The translations under genes were made by a program, and so were the position numbers. Under the pieces are notes generated by a model. The model did not search any database. It saw nothing but the letters and a program-made list of their open reading frames with translations, and had not been told where the DNA came from. A stretch of DNA of 64,000 nt from Octopus vulgaris (taxonomy: Eukaryota): assembly GCA_951406725.2 (NCBI GenBank), contig OX597816.1:23560001-23624000 (forward strand), in the 5' to 3' direction. Shown in pieces: positions 25,684 through 39,732 of this stretch. Position 1 is the stretch's first letter, and the number at the start of each line of letters is the position of its first letter.

Positions 25684-25742
<59 letters not shown>

Positions 25743-25744
<2 letters not shown>

Positions 25745-25972
25745 TTCTTTACTACCCACAACGGGCTAAACACAGAGGGGACAAACAAGGACAGACAAAC
25801 GGATTAAGTCGATTATACCGACCCCAGTGCGTAACTGGTACTTATTTAATAGACCCCGAAAGGATGAAAGGCAAAGTCGACCTCGGCGGAATTTGAACTC
25901 AGAACGTAACGGGAGACGAAATACCACTAAGCATTTCGCCCGGCGTGCTAACGATTCTGCCAGCTCGCCGCC
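25743..25972 (-). mobile_element. SINE family B
   Basis: Full-length copy inserted in a TA tract. Confidence 0.9.
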
Positions 25973-30074: not shown

Positions 30075-30075
<1 letters not shown>

Positions 30076-30446
30076 TAGCAGTATCGCCCGGCGTTGCTCG
30101 GGTTTGTAAGGGAAATAACTATAAAGCATTTTTAGAGAGTTATAGCCAAAAAATGGGAAAAAAATGACGGTAAATTTTTTTTTTAGTTAAAAAGGTCGAG
30201 TTGCGTCCCCTAGACAGTCTGTGGTTTGTGTTTCTGATTCTCGACCCCATGTCGAATTTATCGATTTTTTTCAGAAGTGGGGGAACTTTTCAAAATTTTC
30301 GCTGCGTTAGTTTTGAATTATGACATTGGGCTATGTGTGTGTCAAGTTTCATCAGAATCGGTTGAAAGCCGTGGTCAGGGTGAGGGTACAACCTAACAGA
30401 CACACAGAAACATACACAGACAAACTGCCGTTTATATATAGAGAGA
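30075..30446 (-). mobile_element. Non-autonomous Helitron (same 3' end as 6187-6580, different interior)
   Basis: The first ~75 bp match 6187 onward. TC...hairpin-CTAG termini, located in a TA tract. Confidence 0.75.
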
Positions 30447-30450
30447 TACA

Positions 30451-31448
30451 TATATGGATGTGTGTAAATACATTTGAAATACATGTGTAAGAAACAGGTT
30501 AAATAAGAATTTTAGTACGTTTAGTATCACTTCTACCAACCCCGTCTTATTAAATATGTATTTTTACTTTCTGCATTTATCGTTATTCTGCACTGAAAAT
30601 AATAATTAAGAAAATAATTCACATTTATGAAAGAAGTTCTCATACACAATGGATATCATTATGACTAAGTGAATGTATTGCGCTGTTAGACAGAAAATAT
30701 ATTAATTTATTTCACACATGTTAAAAAAAAAATAGATTCGTTTTCAGAACACCTGACAGCTGATCAGAAACTATTTGTCTAACTTGTTAATTAGAGTTGG
30801 AAATTAGGAAATAGTCAGACAAAATGCAGAATGTATTAGCTATTCATTAATTGAATGTATTAACTCATATCACAATATGTCGTATATGCAAAGTACAAAG
30901 GAGACATACCAGAAATTCAGTTGGTTTGAGCTAAAAGTAGAAAATTTAACAATAATAAAATCCTTTTCTATTATAAGCACGAGGCCTGAATTTTGGAGGG
31001 AGGGAGCCAGTTGATTACATGGGGATCTCATATCAAGAGAAACAGCATATGACCTTGCAGGTGAAGGCCCAGTTAGAATTTTCTTCTGGTCGAGTAGCCC
31101 ATCCCGCTCAAAAGGTCCCTGAATAAGGATTGTTTAAGGATGTTGAACGAACCACCCATGTTCCCAAAGGTGAATTATCCAAACCTCTACAACACATGGC
31201 TATGATGCTCTCCAACTACTTCTGCTCGTGGTCAGAGATGCACATATCGTCAGTCACTAAGGGACATTCTCAACCGGTTAAGTTCAAAGAAATGACAAGC
31301 AAATTTGTGGTATTGAGCAGAATATTTGCTGTAGCCCATCTTTTATACCAAGACAAAACAATGTACATGATAACACTTCCAATCAGCTAAGATCAGAAGC
31401 CACGAGAGCCACTGTCTGGTACTGCATGAGGGCATTTATTATTATTAT

Positions 31449-31484
<36 letters not shown>

Positions 31485-31936
31485 CAGTAGCAGCAGCAGC
31501 AGCAGCAGCAGCATGGTGGAGGCAACTGAGGGCCAACTTACAACATGTATCTAGTATGAGACATGTTAATTTGTGTTTTCAAATCTTTATGACAAAGAAT
31601 CCAAATACCAGTTATATTGCCGTCAATCATTCAATTCAATATATGATACCCCTCGTTAAGAAGCAACTTTGTACTGAATCTGAATCGAAAGAAAAAGAAA
31701 TTCTCCTTCTTCTTCGTCTTCTTCTTCGTCTTCTCATTATCATTTTTATTACTTATTTATTTACTTATTCACATCTGATTTTTATTGATCTTGTTGACAT
31801 TATTACAGCTGTTATTGTTATTTGGCGATGTGGTTGTTTTTACAATGACTGCTGTTGCCTTGCCTTGCTTGCTTTTATTATATTTTATTGTTTTGACATG
31901 ATTAACAGAGAAATACGACTTGAGAGTTAACTAACA
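30451..31936 (+). repeat. Left copy of ~1.5-kb direct duplication
   Basis: Matches 39726-41209 with scattered substitutions and small indels. Confidence 0.95.
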
Positions 31937-32235
31937 GTTGTCTGTTCGTCTTCGCTACGATGTTACTTTGTTAGTTAGATGTTACTTTTTCATCGATACA
32001 CTGAACTTTGAACGACTGAATACGAGTGCCTGCTTGGTTGGTAAATTGCTGTTGCTTTGTTGGCTTAATCACTGTTGTTTTGGTGTCTTTTCAATAAGAC
32101 TGTTAGTGGCCTTCGTGCGAGGGCTGCGTACTTGGTTCCCCCCCCCGCGGGGGAATTATTGTGTGTCATCGTGTGTGAAACACATCCAAAAAAAAAAAAA
32201 AAAAAAATTTTTCTACAAACGGCTGCAAAGCCAGA

Positions 32236-33600
32236 ATGTCTTCGGAAGGCGGTGAATGCCAACTGGAAAAAAAACTCGAAATGGAATTCCCCATTTCTTA
32301 TTCACCAATCTCAGGTGATGGAAGCTCTCAAGCCTCAGGTGAAGAAAGCTCACCGGCGGTGACGCCGGAAAAAGAACCGGCGGTAACGCCAGGAAAAAAG
32401 GCCCCAGCGAAGAAGTTCGCAGAAGTTGTGGGGCGTAAACAAAAAAGTATAAATGTAGATAATCTGGAAAAATACGAAGCCCTTCTAAAAAAAGAAGGAA
32501 ATGAGATAGCAGTAAAAAAAGATGTTGAAAAAAAGGAAGAGATTGAAAAGAAAAGGATAATTTATAAGACATACAGCACGACAACAAAAAGTATACAAAA
32601 AGTGGAAGAGAGTAAAATAGAGGAGTCCCTGAAGGCAATTAGAAAGGACGTCACCTATATAAACAGAGGAAGACGGTTCGGAACGGTAGAAGTGAGGTTT
32701 AGGACCGAAGAAATAGCAAAGAGGCTATCTACCGAACCACAAAAAGCAGGAAACATAGTCCTTCTACCCTTGTACAAAGGAAGAAGGACTTCGAAAATAG
32801 TTATGAGGAATATTCCCCCAGAGGCGGACGCCACATGCCTGGTGGCGGCAGTGATGCTGGGCCTGAAGGAAAAAATCAATATCCTACAAGCTACAGTGGA
32901 GGAGGAGGGTTTTTGGCAGGGCCAGATCATCACAATGGCAATACAAGCGGAGGCCCAGACACTGGAGGAAATACCAGAGGTGCTGAGGCTCGATGAGGAG
33001 GAGAGAGTATTGGTATTTGTAGAAGGAAGAAAGCCGAGGTGCTTCGGCTGCGGGAAAAAGGGACACGTAAGAGCGGAGTGTCAACCTAAACCGCAGGTAG
33101 AAGCACCGTCGGAAAAAGAAGAAGCTGAGAAGGAAAAGAAAACAGAAGAAACCAAAGAGGTAGAAAAATCATCGAGTGGTGCGGAAAAAGAAAAAGAAAA
33201 CGAAAAAGAGGAGGGGTGGTCTAAAGTTACCAAAAAAAAACTGAAAACAGAAACCACCCCTCAAGACGAAGAAAACCAGAAGAAAAGAAAAGAAGTTACT
33301 ACTTCATTTATGGCCATTAAGGCTACGAACAACAGACTAGTCAATGTGTTGGCAGCCATGGCCAATGTGGAAAGAGTAAGGAGAACGAAAGACTGTATCG
33401 TGTACAAAATAGGCCGGAAGGACTACAGGAGGATAAAATCCGAATTCTTCCACGACGTGGGCCCTCTGAGACTGGACATGTCTCCATATCTCTACGAGGG
33501 CCTGCGTCGGACTCCCCCACGAGCCAAGGAAAAAAATAAAAACGAAGAAGACGACGAAAAACAAGGCAAGCCAGTCGAACAAGTCGAACCACTGATATAA
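32236..33600 (+). CDS. LINE ORF1 nucleic-acid-binding (gag-like) protein, 454 aa
   Basis: CX2CX4HX4C zinc knuckle CFGCGKKGHVRAEC, upstream RRM-like segment, K/E-rich tail, located directly before ORF2. Exact start codon uncertain. Confidence 0.9.
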   Translation: MSSEGGECQLEKKLEMEFPISYSPISGDGSSQASGEESSPAVTPEKEPAVTPGKKAPAKKFAEVVGRKQKSINVDNLEKYEALLKKEGNEIAVKKDVEKKEEIEKKRIIYKTYSTTTKSIQKVEESKIEESLKAIRKDVTYINRGRRFGTVEVRFRTEEIAKRLSTEPQKAGNIVLLPLYKGRRTSKIVMRNIPPEADATCLVAAVMLGLKEKINILQATVEEEGFWQGQIITMAIQAEAQTLEEIPEVLRLDEEERVLVFVEGRKPRCFGCGKKGHVRAECQPKPQVEAPSEKEEAEKEKKTEETKEVEKSSSGAEKEKENEKEEGWSKVTKKKLKTETTPQDEENQKKRKEVTTSFMAIKATNNRLVNVLAAMANVERVRRTKDCIVYKIGRKDYRRIKSEFFHDVGPLRLDMSPYLYEGLRRTPPRAKEKNKNEEDDEKQGKPVEQVEPLI

Positions 33601-33608
33601 GGTAAGTT

Positions 33609-36600
33609 ATGGACTACATTTATGTTGGTTGTTTAAATGTGCGCGGCCTGGGATCAAGCGGGAAGCAAGGTCGCTTCCTTAATGATATCAGGTCGCGTAA
33701 TTTGGATGTTATTGTTGCTACAGAAACCCGGTTAAAGGGGCCAAGAAGTCTACTCCCGCTGTTTGACGGCTACGAGAGTTTTTTCTCTCCGGCCAGTCCT
33801 ACAGGCGGGGGTGGGGTGTTGGTCCTATTAAAAAGAAACCGGGTTTTTGAGAAAAAGTTAATTTTTTCAGACCCAGAAGGTAGGCTGGTCGTCATGGATT
33901 TGACGTTCAGTAACGGTAAAGTTATCAGACTGGTTGCAATTTACGCACCCAATACAGGGCAAAGTGATTATTTTCGTGAACTAGAAAACTTTCTCGGTAC
34001 TTCGCATTCATTAGTTGTGCTAGGAGACTTTAACACAATTTGCAAAGCGGATGTAGATTGTGTTGGCTCGAATGCAGATAGAAAAGGTAACTATTGCTTC
34101 CTGGAACTGCTAAGCCGCTTTGAGCTAGCAGATCCTTATAGGTTGGAATTTCCGAACGCTCCATTGTGGACATGGTCAAACAGCGACGGATCTTCCAGGT
34201 CATACATAGATAGAATTCTAATTAGAAAGGTAGACAGTAAAATAGCTAATTGTCCACAGTTTTACCCGATCAGCTACAGTGATCATAAAATGGTCACTTG
34301 TAAGCTTGACATAGATAAGGTTAGAAATAGAGGATCCGGTTACTGGAAACTTAATACGTCCCTTTTGGCGATTAAGGAGTACAGAGACCGGATTAGGACT
34401 ATAATTCAGAGGGCGCTGTCTGGTGCCATCATTAATAACAAATGGTGGTACGCCCTCAAACGAGCCATCAAGTTTGAGTCTATTAGATATAGCATAGGAG
34501 TAGTGACTAGAGAGGCTAGAAGGGAAACTACTCTAGTTAAGGAATTAGAGGAAGCCATGAAAACTGGCTCTGCGGCTCAGGTGGCGTCCAAGAGACTGGT
34601 GTTAAACCAGCACCTCGAGGCCAAACACATGGGCTGCATTGTCAGGGCTAGAATCCGTCATACGGGATGTGAAGGAATCAACGCCGTGAGATGGGCCCGA
34701 GTGGTGGAAGCCCGGAATGGCAACGATGCCACGATTCGATCTTTGAAGAACCAACAAGGTGAGTTGATAAACGAACCCGAGGAGATGTGTGAGGCCTTTC
34801 AGGAGCACTTCGCTCAGCTTTTCGGTGAGTGCGGCGGGCTGGATAGGAGGAGGGCCTTTACGGACCTACTCGACGGGCTGCCGCGCTTATCGGGGCGAGA
34901 TGCGGAGGGCTGTGAAGGGCCAATCACGCCTGAGGAGGTGGTTGAGGCAATGACGGACTGCGGCGCGGGCAAGGCGCCGGGTTTGGATGGTCTACCCTAT
35001 GAGTTATATAAGAGTATGCCAGACTTGTTCGGGCACCTACTGGCGGAGGTCTATGCGAACTGGCAGCAGAACGGGCTTATACCCAGATCTGTGCGCCGGG
35101 GAGTGGTGACTCTCGTCAGAAAGGACCCGAGCAAGGGGGAGTGCATTGATAATTTCAGGCCCATCACTCTGCTAAACACAGAGTTGAAGATTTTGGCCAA
35201 AGTGTTATCGAAAAGATTGGCGCGTGTCGCGGATGGTCTGATCGGGGAGGCACAGACATGTGCCGTTCCGGGCAGAACCATTCAGGATAATCTCCATCTA
35301 ATGCGGTACACTATAGAGGGGTTTAATAGTGATTCTGGCAAGGGTGGGGCACTGGTCCATTTAGACCAATCCAAGGCTTTTGATAGGGTCGACCATCGTT
35401 ACCTGGTATCTGCCCTGGCACAGTTCGGGCTGAGCCTTGGCTTCCTCAGGTGGATTATCCAAATTTATGACAACATCGACTCGGTAGTTCGGGTGAACGG
35501 CTTCTTGTCGAAGCCGTTCAAAATCAAACGCTCGGTTCGTCAAGGGTGTCCGCTCTCCCCGCTTTTGTACGTGATGGCTCTTGAGCCATTACTGCGAAAA
35601 CTGAGCGGCATCCCGAGACAGCCAGGTAATGGAAAATCAGTGTCAGCGTACGCGGACGACATCACCATCATCGTAACCGAAATGGACCACCTATGTAAAG
35701 TAGGCAAGGCCATAGAGGTTTACGAGACGGTGACAGGAGCAAAAGTTAATCGCGAAAAGTCAGTCGGCTTGCAACTCGGCACCTGGAGAGGCAAGTCGAT
35801 GCCTCCTGACAGCGTCGTGGGACGTTGGACGGAGGGTCCGATTAAACTGCTAGGGGTCTGGTTCGGTCCAGACCTCCAAATAGAGAAGAATTGGGGCGAG
35901 GTAACGAGCAAGGTGGCTGCAGTAGCCAAGACCTGGTCTTGGCGGTGGCTATCCCTGAAAGGGAGGGCGGAGGTGGCCAATGTGTTTATCGCATCGGTTA
36001 TCACCTACCGCCTTTCCGTCGTTCCATGCCCTGATTCGTGGTTGATCAAGTTGGAAAGACAGCTCTTCTACTTCTTGTGGAAGGGCGGGAAACCATTTGT
36101 GAAACGCTCTACTTGCTGTCAACAACCGTTAAAGGGTGGGCTAGGGATGCCTTGGCTGATGATGCGCAAACATGCGCTGAGGTTAAGACATCTGTGGCTC
36201 TACCTGGATGGTGAACGGGTGTGGTCTTCGCTAGCAAAACTGATGTTTCCCAAGTTCACTAGTTTCGGTGGATGGGAAACCTGGTTGAATCTTAAATCGA
36301 AACTGGGCACATGGTATACGGAGTGTCGCAAGGCTCTCCTGCTATTCCGTCGCTCGGGCAACGCCTGCGGTGGGGGTTCCACCACATTCTTCTATAGAGG
36401 GTTGGTAGAGGCGGAATGTGAAGACACCCTGGGGGAAACCCTAGGTCTCGACGATAATCAGCTGGCCAGTCTGTTCCGACGTACGTTCGAGCCGAAGACA
36501 CTGGACAACTTCCAGAAGTCTCTGGCATGGCAATGCTACAGAGGAGCTCTACCTGTTCGGGATAAACTCGCAAGGCACGGTGGCCAAGACAGTCCGACGT

Positions 36601-37004
36601 GTCCAAGATGCGGGCGGGATAGGGAAACCGTCCCGCACGCTATTGTCCATTGTTCGGTCGTGTCTGAGGTGTGGGTTTATGCCGAACACCTGTTGTCAAA
36701 CACACGAAGAGTACAGCTGTCGACTGAGTGTATTAAAAAAATTGACCCACCAGACTTCCTCGCGAAAGAAGGTAAGAATTGTTTTCTCGTTGTGGTAGCA
36801 ATTGCGAAAGAGGTGATATGGAAGACGAGAATGAAAGGTATACGGTCAGGCAAGTTCATATCCGGCCCTGGGTTGATGAATTATTTCATCTTCCACCTGA
36901 AAAGGAAAGATGAGAAGATAGAGAGAAAATGCCTGACTAAAAGAGTGTATGAAGAACGATGGAAGGATGTAGCACGGAAGTTGCGAATAGATGACACCAC
37001 ATAA
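33609..37004 (+). CDS. LINE ORF2: apurinic-like endonuclease + reverse transcriptase + C-terminal zinc finger, 1131 aa
   Basis: APE motifs LNVRGL, ATET, GDFN, IDRIL, SDH. RT motifs KAPGLDG, NFRPITLLN, LDQSKAFD, RQGCPLSP, YADD, then GGLG. C-terminal CPRC...H...C. The GYWKLN linker is typical of the L1/Tx1 clade. Confidence 0.97.
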   Translation: MDYIYVGCLNVRGLGSSGKQGRFLNDIRSRNLDVIVATETRLKGPRSLLPLFDGYESFFSPASPTGGGGVLVLLKRNRVFEKKLIFSDPEGRLVVMDLTFSNGKVIRLVAIYAPNTGQSDYFRELENFLGTSHSLVVLGDFNTICKADVDCVGSNADRKGNYCFLELLSRFELADPYRLEFPNAPLWTWSNSDGSSRSYIDRILIRKVDSKIANCPQFYPISYSDHKMVTCKLDIDKVRNRGSGYWKLNTSLLAIKEYRDRIRTIIQRALSGAIINNKWWYALKRAIKFESIRYSIGVVTREARRETTLVKELEEAMKTGSAAQVASKRLVLNQHLEAKHMGCIVRARIRHTGCEGINAVRWARVVEARNGNDATIRSLKNQQGELINEPEEMCEAFQEHFAQLFGECGGLDRRRAFTDLLDGLPRLSGRDAEGCEGPITPEEVVEAMTDCGAGKAPGLDGLPYELYKSMPDLFGHLLAEVYANWQQNGLIPRSVRRGVVTLVRKDPSKGECIDNFRPITLLNTELKILAKVLSKRLARVADGLIGEAQTCAVPGRTIQDNLHLMRYTIEGFNSDSGKGGALVHLDQSKAFDRVDHRYLVSALAQFGLSLGFLRWIIQIYDNIDSVVRVNGFLSKPFKIKRSVRQGCPLSPLLYVMALEPLLRKLSGIPRQPGNGKSVSAYADDITIIVTEMDHLCKVGKAIEVYETVTGAKVNREKSVGLQLGTWRGKSMPPDSVVGRWTEGPIKLLGVWFGPDLQIEKNWGEVTSKVAAVAKTWSWRWLSLKGRAEVANVFIASVITYRLSVVPCPDSWLIKLERQLFYFLWKGGKPFVKRSTCCQQPLKGGLGMPWLMMRKHALRLRHLWLYLDGERVWSSLAKLMFPKFTSFGGWETWLNLKSKLGTWYTECRKALLLFRRSGNACGGGSTTFFYRGLVEAECEDTLGETLGLDDNQLASLFRRTFEPKTLDNFQKSLAWQCYRGALPVRDKLARHGGQDSPTCPRCGRDRETVPHAIVHCSVVSEVWVYAEHLLSNTRRVQLSTECIKKIDPPDFLAKEGKNCFLVVVAIAKEVIWKTRMKGIRSGKFISGPGLMNYFIFHLKRKDEKIERKCLTKRVYEERWKDVARKLRIDDTT

Positions 37005-37254
37005 ATGTAAATCAGAACGAAACCAAAGTATCAGTGGTGAGGCGGGGCTCGTGGGGTCCGAGCTGAACCCGCCCCCACTCCACCTGTAATGTCTTCCGGT
37101 CTGTTATTCATTCGATTTTATAATTTTTGCATTTTTGTGAATTTTTGAAATTTTTAATCTCATCCTTTTTGTAACCCCATCCGAGAATCTGACCCCACAT
37201 CAGGTTGTATCGTCCCCTCTTTGTTTGCCCCTTGTGGGTAATAAAGAAATAGGG

Positions 37255-37735
37255 CAGTTGTCTGTTCGTCTTCGCTACGTAAGGTTGGTAGTTTATTTAT
37301 GATGTGTTCAGAATCAGTTCTGCTGAGGATCATAAGACGTAAGTTGAATGTGAAATCACGGTGATACAGAACTAAATTCATTTTTTAAATGTCTTGCTTT
37401 GAAAAACTGCATTTAGGTATGATTAGTATAATTTTGGTAGTAATGACTTTGTCCCTCTTAGTGTGAGGCATTTATGTGTAATAATGCCCTCTATACAATA
37501 TAGATATAATTAATTTGTTCAAAAGGAAAAAAATTATTTTCGAATTCTTTTCTTTTATGAGGTTTTCACGCTAACTACCCGATAATTTCTTGTTAAGATC
37601 CCTTATTAAGAGATTATCCTTAATTGTTAAACTTATTCCGAAATACTTTTCATTACCCGACATGCAGTTCGTAAAAAGCCCGCCATTTACCGGATATATG
37701 ATTTATAAACATTCCATGTGCTTGGCCGGAGTGGG
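37255..37735 (+). repeat. ~481-bp unit that is the insertion target of both retroelements
   Basis: CAGTTGTCT(G/A)TTCGTC recurs at 31935, 37255, 37736 and 39452. 37254-37501 is repeated at 39451-39698 with no differences I could see. Confidence 0.8.
37256..37500 (+). ncRNA. Candidate small Pol II RNA (SL-RNA/snRNA-like), unidentified
   Basis: Starts at an Inr-like GCAGTT. Short leader followed by GT donors (TAC|GTAAGG or AAG|GTTGGT), stem AGTTCTG/CAGAACT, AATTTTGG Sm-like site at ~37430, hairpin GAGGCATT/AATGCCCTC near the end. No match to an snRNA I recognise. Confidence 0.3.
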
Positions 37736-37742
37736 CAGTTGT
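37680..37742 (+). promoter_or_regulatory. Putative core promoter of the target unit (TATA + Inr)
   Basis: TATAAA at 37704-37709 lies 33 nt upstream of the A of GCAGTT (37737). CGCCATTT at 37681, and a TACCCGA motif occurs twice further upstream. Confidence 0.45.
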
Positions 37743-37751
37743 CTATTCGTC

Positions 37752-39450
37752 AGTTTGAGTTCGGTCGTGTTTTTTTACGCTCGTAAAATTCGGTAAAAAA
37801 AGATAAAAAAGAATTGTTGTTGTTGTTGTGGAAATTTTGAACGGCGTTAAAGCGGTTTCGCGTTCCACTGGTTCTGCGCGTAACACTTTTTCTGTTTTGA
37901 CGGCCGTTTTGGCCTGTCAGGCGGGAGGAGATGGATGACCACTCCCTAGTGGAGGAGTCGGAGGAAGAATGGATATTTGAGAGCTTGTCGGAGACATCGA
38001 ACTCTGAAGACGAGCAAATCGGTGATGTAAATAATGTGGAGACAAAAAACAGGAAAACGTACGCAGGAGTTGCAAAAAGAAGACGGAACAGGAAAAAGAA
38101 ATAAACCTAGAAAAATTGCCAGGTTTCCAGAGGTATATGAGGAAGGACAGCGGCGAGGTGGAACTGGAACCACCACCAAAGAGAAAGGAATGGTACAATA
38201 AGAGGACCATAATTTACAGGGTGTTCGTGAACGAAAGAAAGAAAATAGAGATCGTAAACATGGAATGGATAGAGGAGGCCCTGAGAAGATCGGAGGAGGA
38301 AATCATTTTTCTGACTCGAGGATCGAAGTACGGTACTGTAGTGGTGCATTTTAAAAGTGAGACTGCAGCGAGGAGGATGGCGGTGAAGGCGGTGAAGTCA
38401 GAAAGGGTAACACTTTTACCTATGTACTTGAATAGAAGGATCACACGAGTAAGGGTGGAGGGAGTGCCACCAAACGTGGAGGCTGAGTGGATTGTGGCGG
38501 CTGTGATCAGCGGCCACGAGGAGAAAGTAGATATTCTCCATGCCTCGGTCAAGACCGAGGGCTGGAGAGGCGTAATAGTGGAGCTGAACGTGCAGGCGGA
38601 GAGCGAGGTACTGGTGGACCTGGCGGAGAGCATTAAATTGGGAGACGTGATTATGAGAGTGTGGGTGGAGGGCAGAGCTCCACGTTGTTACAAGTGTGGC
38701 CTGAGGGGCCACATAAGAGCCTTCTGCCCTCCCCCACCAAGAGAAAAGGAAATCGTTGAGGAAACTCCAAAAGAGGAGGCCCCAAAAGAAGAAGAAATTA
38801 AAGAGAAGCAGACGGAAAGGGAAATGACAGAGGAGGAGGAGATGCAAAAAGAGTGTGAGGAGGGCAGAAAGAAGAGAAAAGGAAAGAAAAGGAAAAACTG
38901 TGCGAAGCCCCAACCCACCCCAATACCACCCACACCCTTGGAGACCCATCCTGCCCCCGCAAACAGCAATCCCACCCACTCCCCGCCTACAAGAAAAACG
39001 AAAACAGACACACAGAACATACAAAAGCCCCAGTCCTACTTTTTATGTGTTGTGGGGAAGGAGATACTGAGAACGCAAGAAGGCTTTTTGAAGACGATGT
39101 ATGGCAGGAGTATGAGGACGGAAGCTATGCGGTATTCGATTTTGAACTCATGGGCTCTTTGATGAACAAGTGCAATGAACTAAGAATAAATTGTTTATCA
39201 GTATATTTGAAGGATGATATGATAGAGAGATATGAGAGAGAAATGAAAGGTGAGGTGAAAAACTTTGGAATCGCGATAGGAAACGGAAAGGTAAGTGATG
39301 CTGGCGGAGGGGGCCGTTAGCATCGCTTTCATGTTATCATTTTTTCATTTTAACATTCATTTAATCATAATTTTAATCGCATTGTTTTATGTCCCCCATG
39401 TTTTGTAATGTTCCCTCTTCGTGGCCCCTAGTGGGTAATAGAGAAATAGG
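37752..39450 (+). mobile_element. ORF1-only non-autonomous LINE derivative (HAL1-like)
   Basis: Encodes an ORF1 homologue and no ORF2. Ends GCCCCTAGTGGGTAATAGAGAAATAGG like the LINE. Flanked by GGGCAGTTGTCT(A/G)TTCGTC at 37733-37751 and 39449-39467. Confidence 0.85.
37931..39320 (+). CDS. Diverged ORF1/gag-like zinc-knuckle protein, with 1-2 apparent frameshifts (core frame 38116-39162)
   Basis: Aligns by eye to LINE ORF1: FLTRGSKYGTVVVHF vs YINRGRRFGTVEVRF; LLPMYLNRR vs LLPLYKGRR; VWVEGRAPRCYKCGLRGHIRAFC vs VFVEGRKPRCFGCGKKGHVRAEC. The ATG at 37931 joins the main frame if one A is added in the run near 38074-38078. The C-terminus ends at 39162 or shifts into 39045-39320. Confidence 0.75.
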
Positions 39451-39694
39451 GCAGTTGTCTGTTCGTCTTCGCTACGTAAGGTTGGTAGTTTATTTATGAT
39501 GTGTTCAGAATCAGTTCTGCTGAGGATCATAAGACGTAAGTTGAATGTGAAATCACGGTGATACAGAACTAAATTCATTTTTTAAATGTCTTGCTTTGAA
39601 AAACTGCATTTAGGTATGATTAGTATAATTTTGGTAGTAATGACTTTGTCCCTCTTAGTGTGAGGCATTTATGTGTAATAATGCCCTCTATACA

Positions 39695-39698
<4 letters not shown>
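39451..39698 (+). repeat. Second, 3'-truncated copy of the target unit
   Basis: 248-bp direct copy of 37254-37501 that runs into a (TA)n tract. Confidence 0.9.

Positions 39699-39725
<27 letters not shown>

Positions 39726-39732
<7 letters not shown>

Follow-up and report, generated by a model that had tools for sequence, protein, structure and literature searches.

In a window of 64,000 nucleotides of Octopus vulgaris DNA, the whole stretch analysed here, we identified a retroelement of about 1.7 kb (37752-39448, forward strand) that carries an ORF1 and no trace of an ORF2. We consider it probable that this half element represents an ORF1-only non-autonomous family of the L1/Tx1-type lineage, mobilised in trans. 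It shows four features of an ORF1-only non-autonomous LINE: an ORF1 homologue, no ORF2, the 3´ end of an autonomous LINE and a target site duplication (TSD). Against the family reading stand its single copy within the window, two breaks in its reading frame and a C-terminal piece unlike the C-terminal domain of the ORF1 family.

The half element lies in microsatellite-rich DNA close to a complete LINE, and a 481-nt unit consisting of segments B (37252-37508) and C (37509-37732) separates the two. The whole block is bracketed by a direct duplication of 1.5 kb, with a first copy A (30433-31936) and a second copy A´ (39708-41209) that differ by 10 substitutions and 10 indels; both elements with all their parts, the 481-nt unit and A´ are given on the forward strand. 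The neighbour LINE (31960-37251) follows a 25-nt 5´ TSD copy (31935-31959) and contains two intact reading frames, ORF1 (454 aa, 32236-33600) and ORF2 (1131 aa, 33609-37004), the latter with APE endonuclease, reverse transcriptase (RT) and zf-RVT domains. The closest solved relative of this ORF2 is human L1 ORF2p (E 2e-69). A type I ORF1 (RRM + CCHC) together with an APE-RT ORF2 of the L1 group fits an L1/Tx1-type element. Being fully intact, the LINE is a potentially active element and a candidate helper for the half element.

As the earlier note had claimed, the half element has a 5´ UTR, an ORF1, a short 3´ UTR and a TSD of its own. The TSD (37733-37751 and 39449-39467) is 19 nt long with one mismatch (18/19 identical), and its 3´ copy begins a flank, B´, that extends to 39698 and is separated from A´ by (TA)n. 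The 5´ UTR (37752-37930, 179 nt) contains no upstream ATG, the first ATG of the element being located at 37931; its only match to the 5´ UTR of the neighbour is an A-run, and no convincing homology between the two was found. The ORF1 consists of an acidic N-terminal piece in the first frame (37931-38104, stopping at 38104 as assembled), a core (38089-38742), a charged, proline-rich linker that is shared with the database relative P0004 (38743-39039) and a C-terminal piece in the third frame (39039-39320), after which the 3´ UTR (39321-39448) follows. Terminal inverted repeats were not found, and scans of prokaryotic genomes gave zero matches, as expected.

The core contains a first RRM-like domain at about 38176-38436, a second at about 38425-38679 and, at about 38683-38730, a single CCHC knuckle, in agreement with the motifs proposed before. 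The AlphaFold model of the RRM-like part reached a pLDDT of 95.8 on an alignment of 99 sequences (the two window rows and 97 of the 150 listed relatives), and its top Foldseek matches are tandem-RRM proteins (E 1e-5); the superposition on La is only middling (VIA-align Z 8.3, rmsd 2.5 over 79 residues). For the knuckle, the Pfam zf-CCHC match has an E-value of 0.04, below the curated cut-off, and the family profile matches CCHC knuckles in the PDB. Transposase_22 is absent among the Pfam matches of the 99 family members. Members of the family share a C-terminal domain (about 85 aa, 33300-33560 in the neighbour) that is conserved but has no Pfam match. With P0004 as stand-in for the half element ORF1, the top Atlas cluster is commonest in Mollusca; the lower-ranked look-alikes include ZCCHC3-like proteins (score 0.87), which combine a knuckle with two RNA-binding domains and are mentioned as a lead only.

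The ORF1 was described as clearly diverged from that of the adjacent LINE, and this proved correct. The core is 35.5% identical to the neighbour over 220 aa (E 4e-46), and the N-terminal piece yields no alignment with the neighbour N-terminus. Nucleotide identities at the three codon positions are 0.54, 0.61 and 0.40, and 13 of 34 four-fold sites match, with 8.7 expected. In a quick tree (84 of the 99 rows, rows with fewer than 120 aligned residues having been dropped, with SH-aLRT as the only support measure) the half element ORF1 and P0004 form one clade (SH-aLRT 99), the neighbour ORF1 groups with P0001 and P0002 (SH-aLRT 99), and both groups join at 81. P0004 is 50% identical to the half element ORF1 over core aa 115-332; the neighbour ORF1 has a relative at 89.5%. 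Thus, the half element is no damaged version of the adjacent LINE: a protein identity of 35%, a third-position identity of 0.40 and a separate clade all place its ORF1 in a lineage of its own. From this separateness it does not follow that ORF2 is missing in the lineage, and the divergence is no sign of a family either, since the same divergence would be expected of a one-off deletion in another autonomous family.

For the loss of ORF2, all six frames of 38900-39449 were compared with two ORF2 proteins, and none of the 12 tests gave a signal (p>0.27 in 12/12). With fragments from a relative that is about 50% identical in its C-terminal part, the same test recovered 99% of 30-aa and 77% of 20-aa fragments. 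The point at which ORF2 was lost may still be visible. The 9-mer AAGGTAAGT occurs on both strands of the window only at 33599 and 39288, and at both sites an ATG follows one base later; in the neighbour this ATG is the start of ORF2. The junction motif AAGGTAAGT-N-ATG (39288-39300) is identical in 12 of 13 positions to the ORF1-stop/ORF2-start of the neighbour (33599-33611) and is the probable left edge of the ORF2 deletion. It was noticed after the fact and also matches the splice-donor consensus; an equally good match arose in 45 of 3000 local shuffles (p 0.015) and in 34 of 300 shuffles of the whole element (p 0.11). About 20 nt past the motif, the half element becomes collinear with the distal ~145 nt of the neighbour 3´ UTR. 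This alignment pairs 101 of 126 bases, is gappy, T-rich and of low complexity, and has a p-value of 0.013 without the tail. From these positions we infer a loss that begins near the ORF2 start and ends in the distal 3´ UTR.

The splice-donor likeness of the motif raises a separate point. Between its two ORFs, the neighbour carries a sequence that fits the splice-donor consensus (33599-33611), and it has a CAG|G acceptor-like site at 37203, which is the start of the tail shared with the SINEs. Splicing of the neighbour RNA would yield an ORF1-only RNA that keeps the tail, with a branch-point spacing that looks short. An origin of the half element by splicing from the junction donor was rejected, because the donor is still present in the half element.

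The 3´ UTR of 128 nt is short and ends in the shared tail, as proposed: its last 50 nt resemble the neighbour with p=0.003. The last ~45 nt are common to the half element, the neighbour LINE and ten SINE tails, nine of which could be aligned, and poly(A) is absent from both the half element and the LINE. The tail can be aligned although the third-position identity of ORF1 is only 0.40. LINE and half element can form the same small terminal hairpin, which is close to significance in the LINE only (z -1.97, compared with -0.36 in the half element).

The SINE, of about 230 nt, shares the last 45 nt of the LINE and has TSDs of 16-18 nt; its loci are 5593-6007, 7734-8326, 13135, 13918, 25741-25972, 54228-54459 and 57134-57365. 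At two of these loci a single TSD pair encloses a tandem array in which the repeats restart within the SINE. Among five insertions examined, two have perfect TSDs (16 and 18 nt), one has a 16-nt TSD with two mismatches, and two are located in TA repeats. The target motif of the half element flanks none of the ten SINE tails in the window. Since SINEs with the same tail insert elsewhere, the machinery reading this tail is not strictly site-specific.

The LINE and the half element are inserted at the same nucleotide of an identical sequence. In their tails, differences extend to 8 nt before the junction, and from the junction on B´ is identical to the 3´ flank B of the neighbour for 250 nt without a substitution; thus B is target and not element. 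Neither this identical flank nor the 1.5-kb duplication figures in the earlier note. The window contains the TSD motif four times, and none of 100 shuffles contains it. The 5´ TSD of the half element has 19 nt and that of the LINE 25 nt, which suggests that a repeated 481-nt unit was hit by two separate insertions, both at one nucleotide. As to the earlier description of the element as target-specific, two of two elements share the site, at one locus, and the same-tail SINEs go elsewhere.

The nature of the 481-nt unit, to which 39449-39705 also belongs, was approached through its sequence. A known RNA gene as target was rejected: the unit matches no Rfam family and no tRNA, and it folds no better than its shuffles (z 0.44). 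In C, a TATA-like box precedes the first TSD base by exactly 31 nt, and B has a T6 at +129, a spacing which we take to be that of a type-3 promoter and regard as a lead only. GTAAG is found at +27 and +87 and AATTTTGG at +178; we assume that the former are splice-donor-like and the latter is Sm-site-like. In addition, 37654-37671 (-79) agrees by eye at 12 of 18 positions with a published Staf/ZNF143 site (listed in Table 2 of PMC1904299), again a lead only. Candidate identities for the unit are a small-RNA gene, a first exon and a repeat. In the surrounding duplication, A ends exactly at the 5´ TSD copy of the LINE, and at the corresponding point A´ runs on into a few bases similar to the start of the target. 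The 1.5-kb duplication may reflect a rearrangement, a giant TSD or a haplotype join. Just before A, a TA repeat contains a short insertion (30075-30455), partly repeated at 6178-6275, which resembles a small Helitron-type element.

The ORF1 of the half element is spread over three frames, each step being one base short. A codon model for which the neighbour was the sole training sequence scores all three pieces as coding and favours the first frame for the N-terminal piece. Breaks at about 38075 and 39040 had been described, and both exist. Break 1 fits the A5 at 38074-38078. Break 2 can be placed at the T5 39040-39044 or at the T5 39085-39089; the codon model places it at about 39085-39090 with an advantage of about 3 nats, and a low-confidence fold suits 39040. 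The earlier note had suspected a sequencing error at ~38075, an explanation that our data do not favour. The neighbour has 35 homopolymer runs of at least 5 nt and both its ORFs are open, whereas the half element has 14 such runs and two breaks (P 0.05-0.08 if error rates are equal in the two). The breaks are somewhat more likely to be real lesions than read errors, to judge from these counts. A and A´ differ at several homopolymers, so a local sequence error may also have contributed. No nonsense codon was found among the 460 codons, and the half element agrees with the family at 30 of 35 conserved columns, the same number as in the intact neighbour (database median 0.71); this points to a source whose ORF1 was still open, no more than about 4% divergence away. 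As assembled, this copy is dead, and it probably came from such a source recently.

Two other explanations of the frame structure found no support. Programmed frameshifting uses a slippery-site motif of the form X-XXY-YYZ, and a full site of this kind, read from the sequence, is found at neither break. A third break at the A5 at 39258, which would end ORF1 in an overlapping stop-start, is not backed by the codon scores (-0.9 versus 0.5).

The C-terminal piece looks coding (93 stop-free codons, seen in 1 of 3000 shuffles), but homology to the family C-terminal domain could not be detected. Against an HMM of the family C-domain it scored at most 4.7 bits as the best of 53 trial breaks, where 10 of 10 left-out members scored 11.7-43.2 bits; hhalign gave a probability of 0.2% for the same domain, and Pfam no match. 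A single-sequence model is weak (pLDDT 55), with a best Z of 4.6 to ferredoxin-like folds. The piece was also considered as an ORF2 remnant and rejected at the protein level (p 0.37 and 0.55). A purine-rich DNA match of 19/22 nt to the end of ORF2 (p 0.02, one of five tests) was taken as chance.

Instead of belonging to a family, the half element might be an autonomous element of another, unseen Tx1 family, with the same tail and target as the neighbour, that underwent a one-off internal deletion by an RT template jump, a cryptic splice or, after insertion, a DNA deletion. We consider this unlikely, though to be taken seriously. Candidate parents are numerous, with 728 ORF1 relatives (clustered at 50%) and 80 L1-Tx1 consensus families in O. 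vulgaris, 13 of them recently active according to the part of PMC13282606 cited here. The divergence of ORF1, the UTRs, the tail and the TSD would all be expected, an ATG is still present at the ORF2-start position, and the frame breaks fit a dead copy. On the other hand, a traceless loss of ORF2 is obtained in only 1-2% of random deletions: in simulations that kept ORF1 and tail, and that assumed uniform breakpoints and the geometry of the neighbour, less than 30-90 nt of ORF2 were left in 1.3-2.2%. The parent would also need the nick site of a family that is about 1.7 substitutions per site away in ORF1 (summed branch lengths). An established ORF1-only form is argued for chiefly by this near-exact loss, yet a structure-guided RT jump could be equally clean. 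A near-identical ORF1 was found neither in two word-index protein searches with the core, covering 30-657 aa, nor among the best 150 representatives. Database coverage is thin (for the C-terminal part of the neighbour ORF2 only one relative was found, at 50%), so this absence weighs weakly against the family and the one-off deletion alike.

The frame breaks and the flanks allow two further readings. A multi-copy family might exist in which ORF1 is untranslated and the breaks are fixed, moving like a long SINE with both proteins supplied in trans. Two breaks, compared with none in the 4.76 kb of neighbour coding sequence, would agree with this, as would the same-tail SINEs, which move without any ORF1. 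We regard it as very unlikely, because 0 of 460 codons are nonsense and the conserved residues are intact, and because each break lacks a single base in a 5-nt homopolymer, the form that slippage and read errors most commonly take. The shared site might also be a product of rearrangement or assembly, in which the 250-nt flank is a long TSD or duplicated segment, C is 5´-carried sequence and one site is counted twice. B and B´ show no substitution in 250 nt, yet the 19-nt TSD has one mismatch and A and A´ differ as described; furthermore, the block sits inside the 1.5-kb duplication and the 5´ TSD copy of the LINE is joined directly to unrelated sequence. The ORF1-only anatomy would still stand under such an origin, however, and the 5´ TSD copy lies directly before the 5´ UTR, as for the LINE, while the tails differ right up to the junction. 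It has hardly any probability in our view.

The ORF1-only family remains our preferred reading, and the near-exact loss of ORF2, the conserved tail and the use of the LINE's insertion nucleotide make it most likely that ORF2p is borrowed. The lineage of the half element would be sister to the neighbour LINE and not descended from it. Its ancestor would have lost ORF2 from just past the start codon, as the junction motif suggests, to the distal 3´ UTR. The shortened RNA would make a type I ORF1p, for which the predicted fold has two RRMs and a CCHC knuckle, and this protein would package its own RNA in cis. The 3´ tail, which has been kept, could then be recognised by an ORF2 protein, and an autonomous relative such as the neighbour would supply endonuclease and RT in trans. 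The endonuclease of this relative would cut the same target nucleotide, and target-primed reverse transcription would complete the insertion with a 19-nt TSD.

It might also be possible, although we think it improbable, that three tiers exist: a Tx1-type LINE and a long-diverged ORF1-only family, both at the start of a tandemly repeated and so far undescribed 481-bp host unit, and a SINE without this specificity. In that arrangement, LINE and half element would be inserted at the transcription start of the unit and co-transcribed from its promoter, which would account for 5´ TSD copies that start at +1 or immediately behind it. The lack of specificity of a SINE with the same tail would then imply that ORF1p, and not only the endonuclease, confers targeting, and this in turn would explain why the half element has kept its ORF1.

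If the half element is a family, ORF1-only parasitism extends to Tx1-type LINEs in an invertebrate. One genome would then contain three RNAs with one tail, the LINE (ORF1 and ORF2), the half element (ORF1) and the SINE (no ORF), and their comparison would bear on what ORF1p adds in cis and on whether it aids targeting. In the case of a one-off deletion, the half element would be no more than an ordinary dead copy. The 481-nt target unit may be the more useful lead.

ORF1-only elements had been described in the earlier note as known from mammals and some other lineages, and the portions of the literature cited below bear this out with HAL1, HeT-A, Ag-Sponge and the target-specific TRE5-A.2. HAL1 is a non-autonomous L1 derivative of mammals with several independent origins that, like the half element, encodes only ORF1p and no ORF2 (PMC5753468). 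The mammalian HAL1 has an ORF1 of the Transposase_22 type, whereas that of the half element is type I (RRM + CCHC; types as in PMC5203782). The half element also differs in its structured tail without poly(A) and in its invertebrate host. It is therefore not a HAL1 proper, type II ORF1p and poly(A) end both being absent.

Another parallel is TRE5-A.2 of Dictyostelium, in which ORF1 is kept, a large part of ORF2 is deleted and the ORF2p of the full element acts in trans; it has a short 3´ RNA signal and target specificity, as proposed for the half element (PMC3159450, in the part cited). TRE5-A.2 is a derivative of its own helper, whereas the half element ORF1 is 35% identical to that of its candidate helper. 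TRE5-A.2 finds its targets by contact of ORF1p with TFIIIB; half element and LINE have a DNA sequence as their common site. HeT-A, of the Jockey clade, and Ag-Sponge, of the CR1 clade, are bipartite non-autonomous LINEs with ORF1 present that belong to other clades than the half element, and the cases in the cited part of PMC5786205 are from L1, Jockey and CR1, with none from Tx1. A Tx1-derived or cephalopod ORF1-only element was not found in the literature searched; Repbase or Dfam may catalogue one.

Tx1 elements are described in the cited part of PMC4494074 as preferring repeated targets and mobilising non-autonomous partners into them, for instance SINEU/Tx1-Mar, and a family is called target-specific there if one sequence type makes up >20% of the flanks across copies. 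A repeated target and a putative non-autonomous partner are likewise found here. In contrast to SINEU/Tx1-Mar, the target of the half element has no Rfam family, the partner encodes an ORF1 and the tail-sharing SINE inserts at other sites. The half element probably adds to the known class of ORF1-only non-autonomous LINEs.
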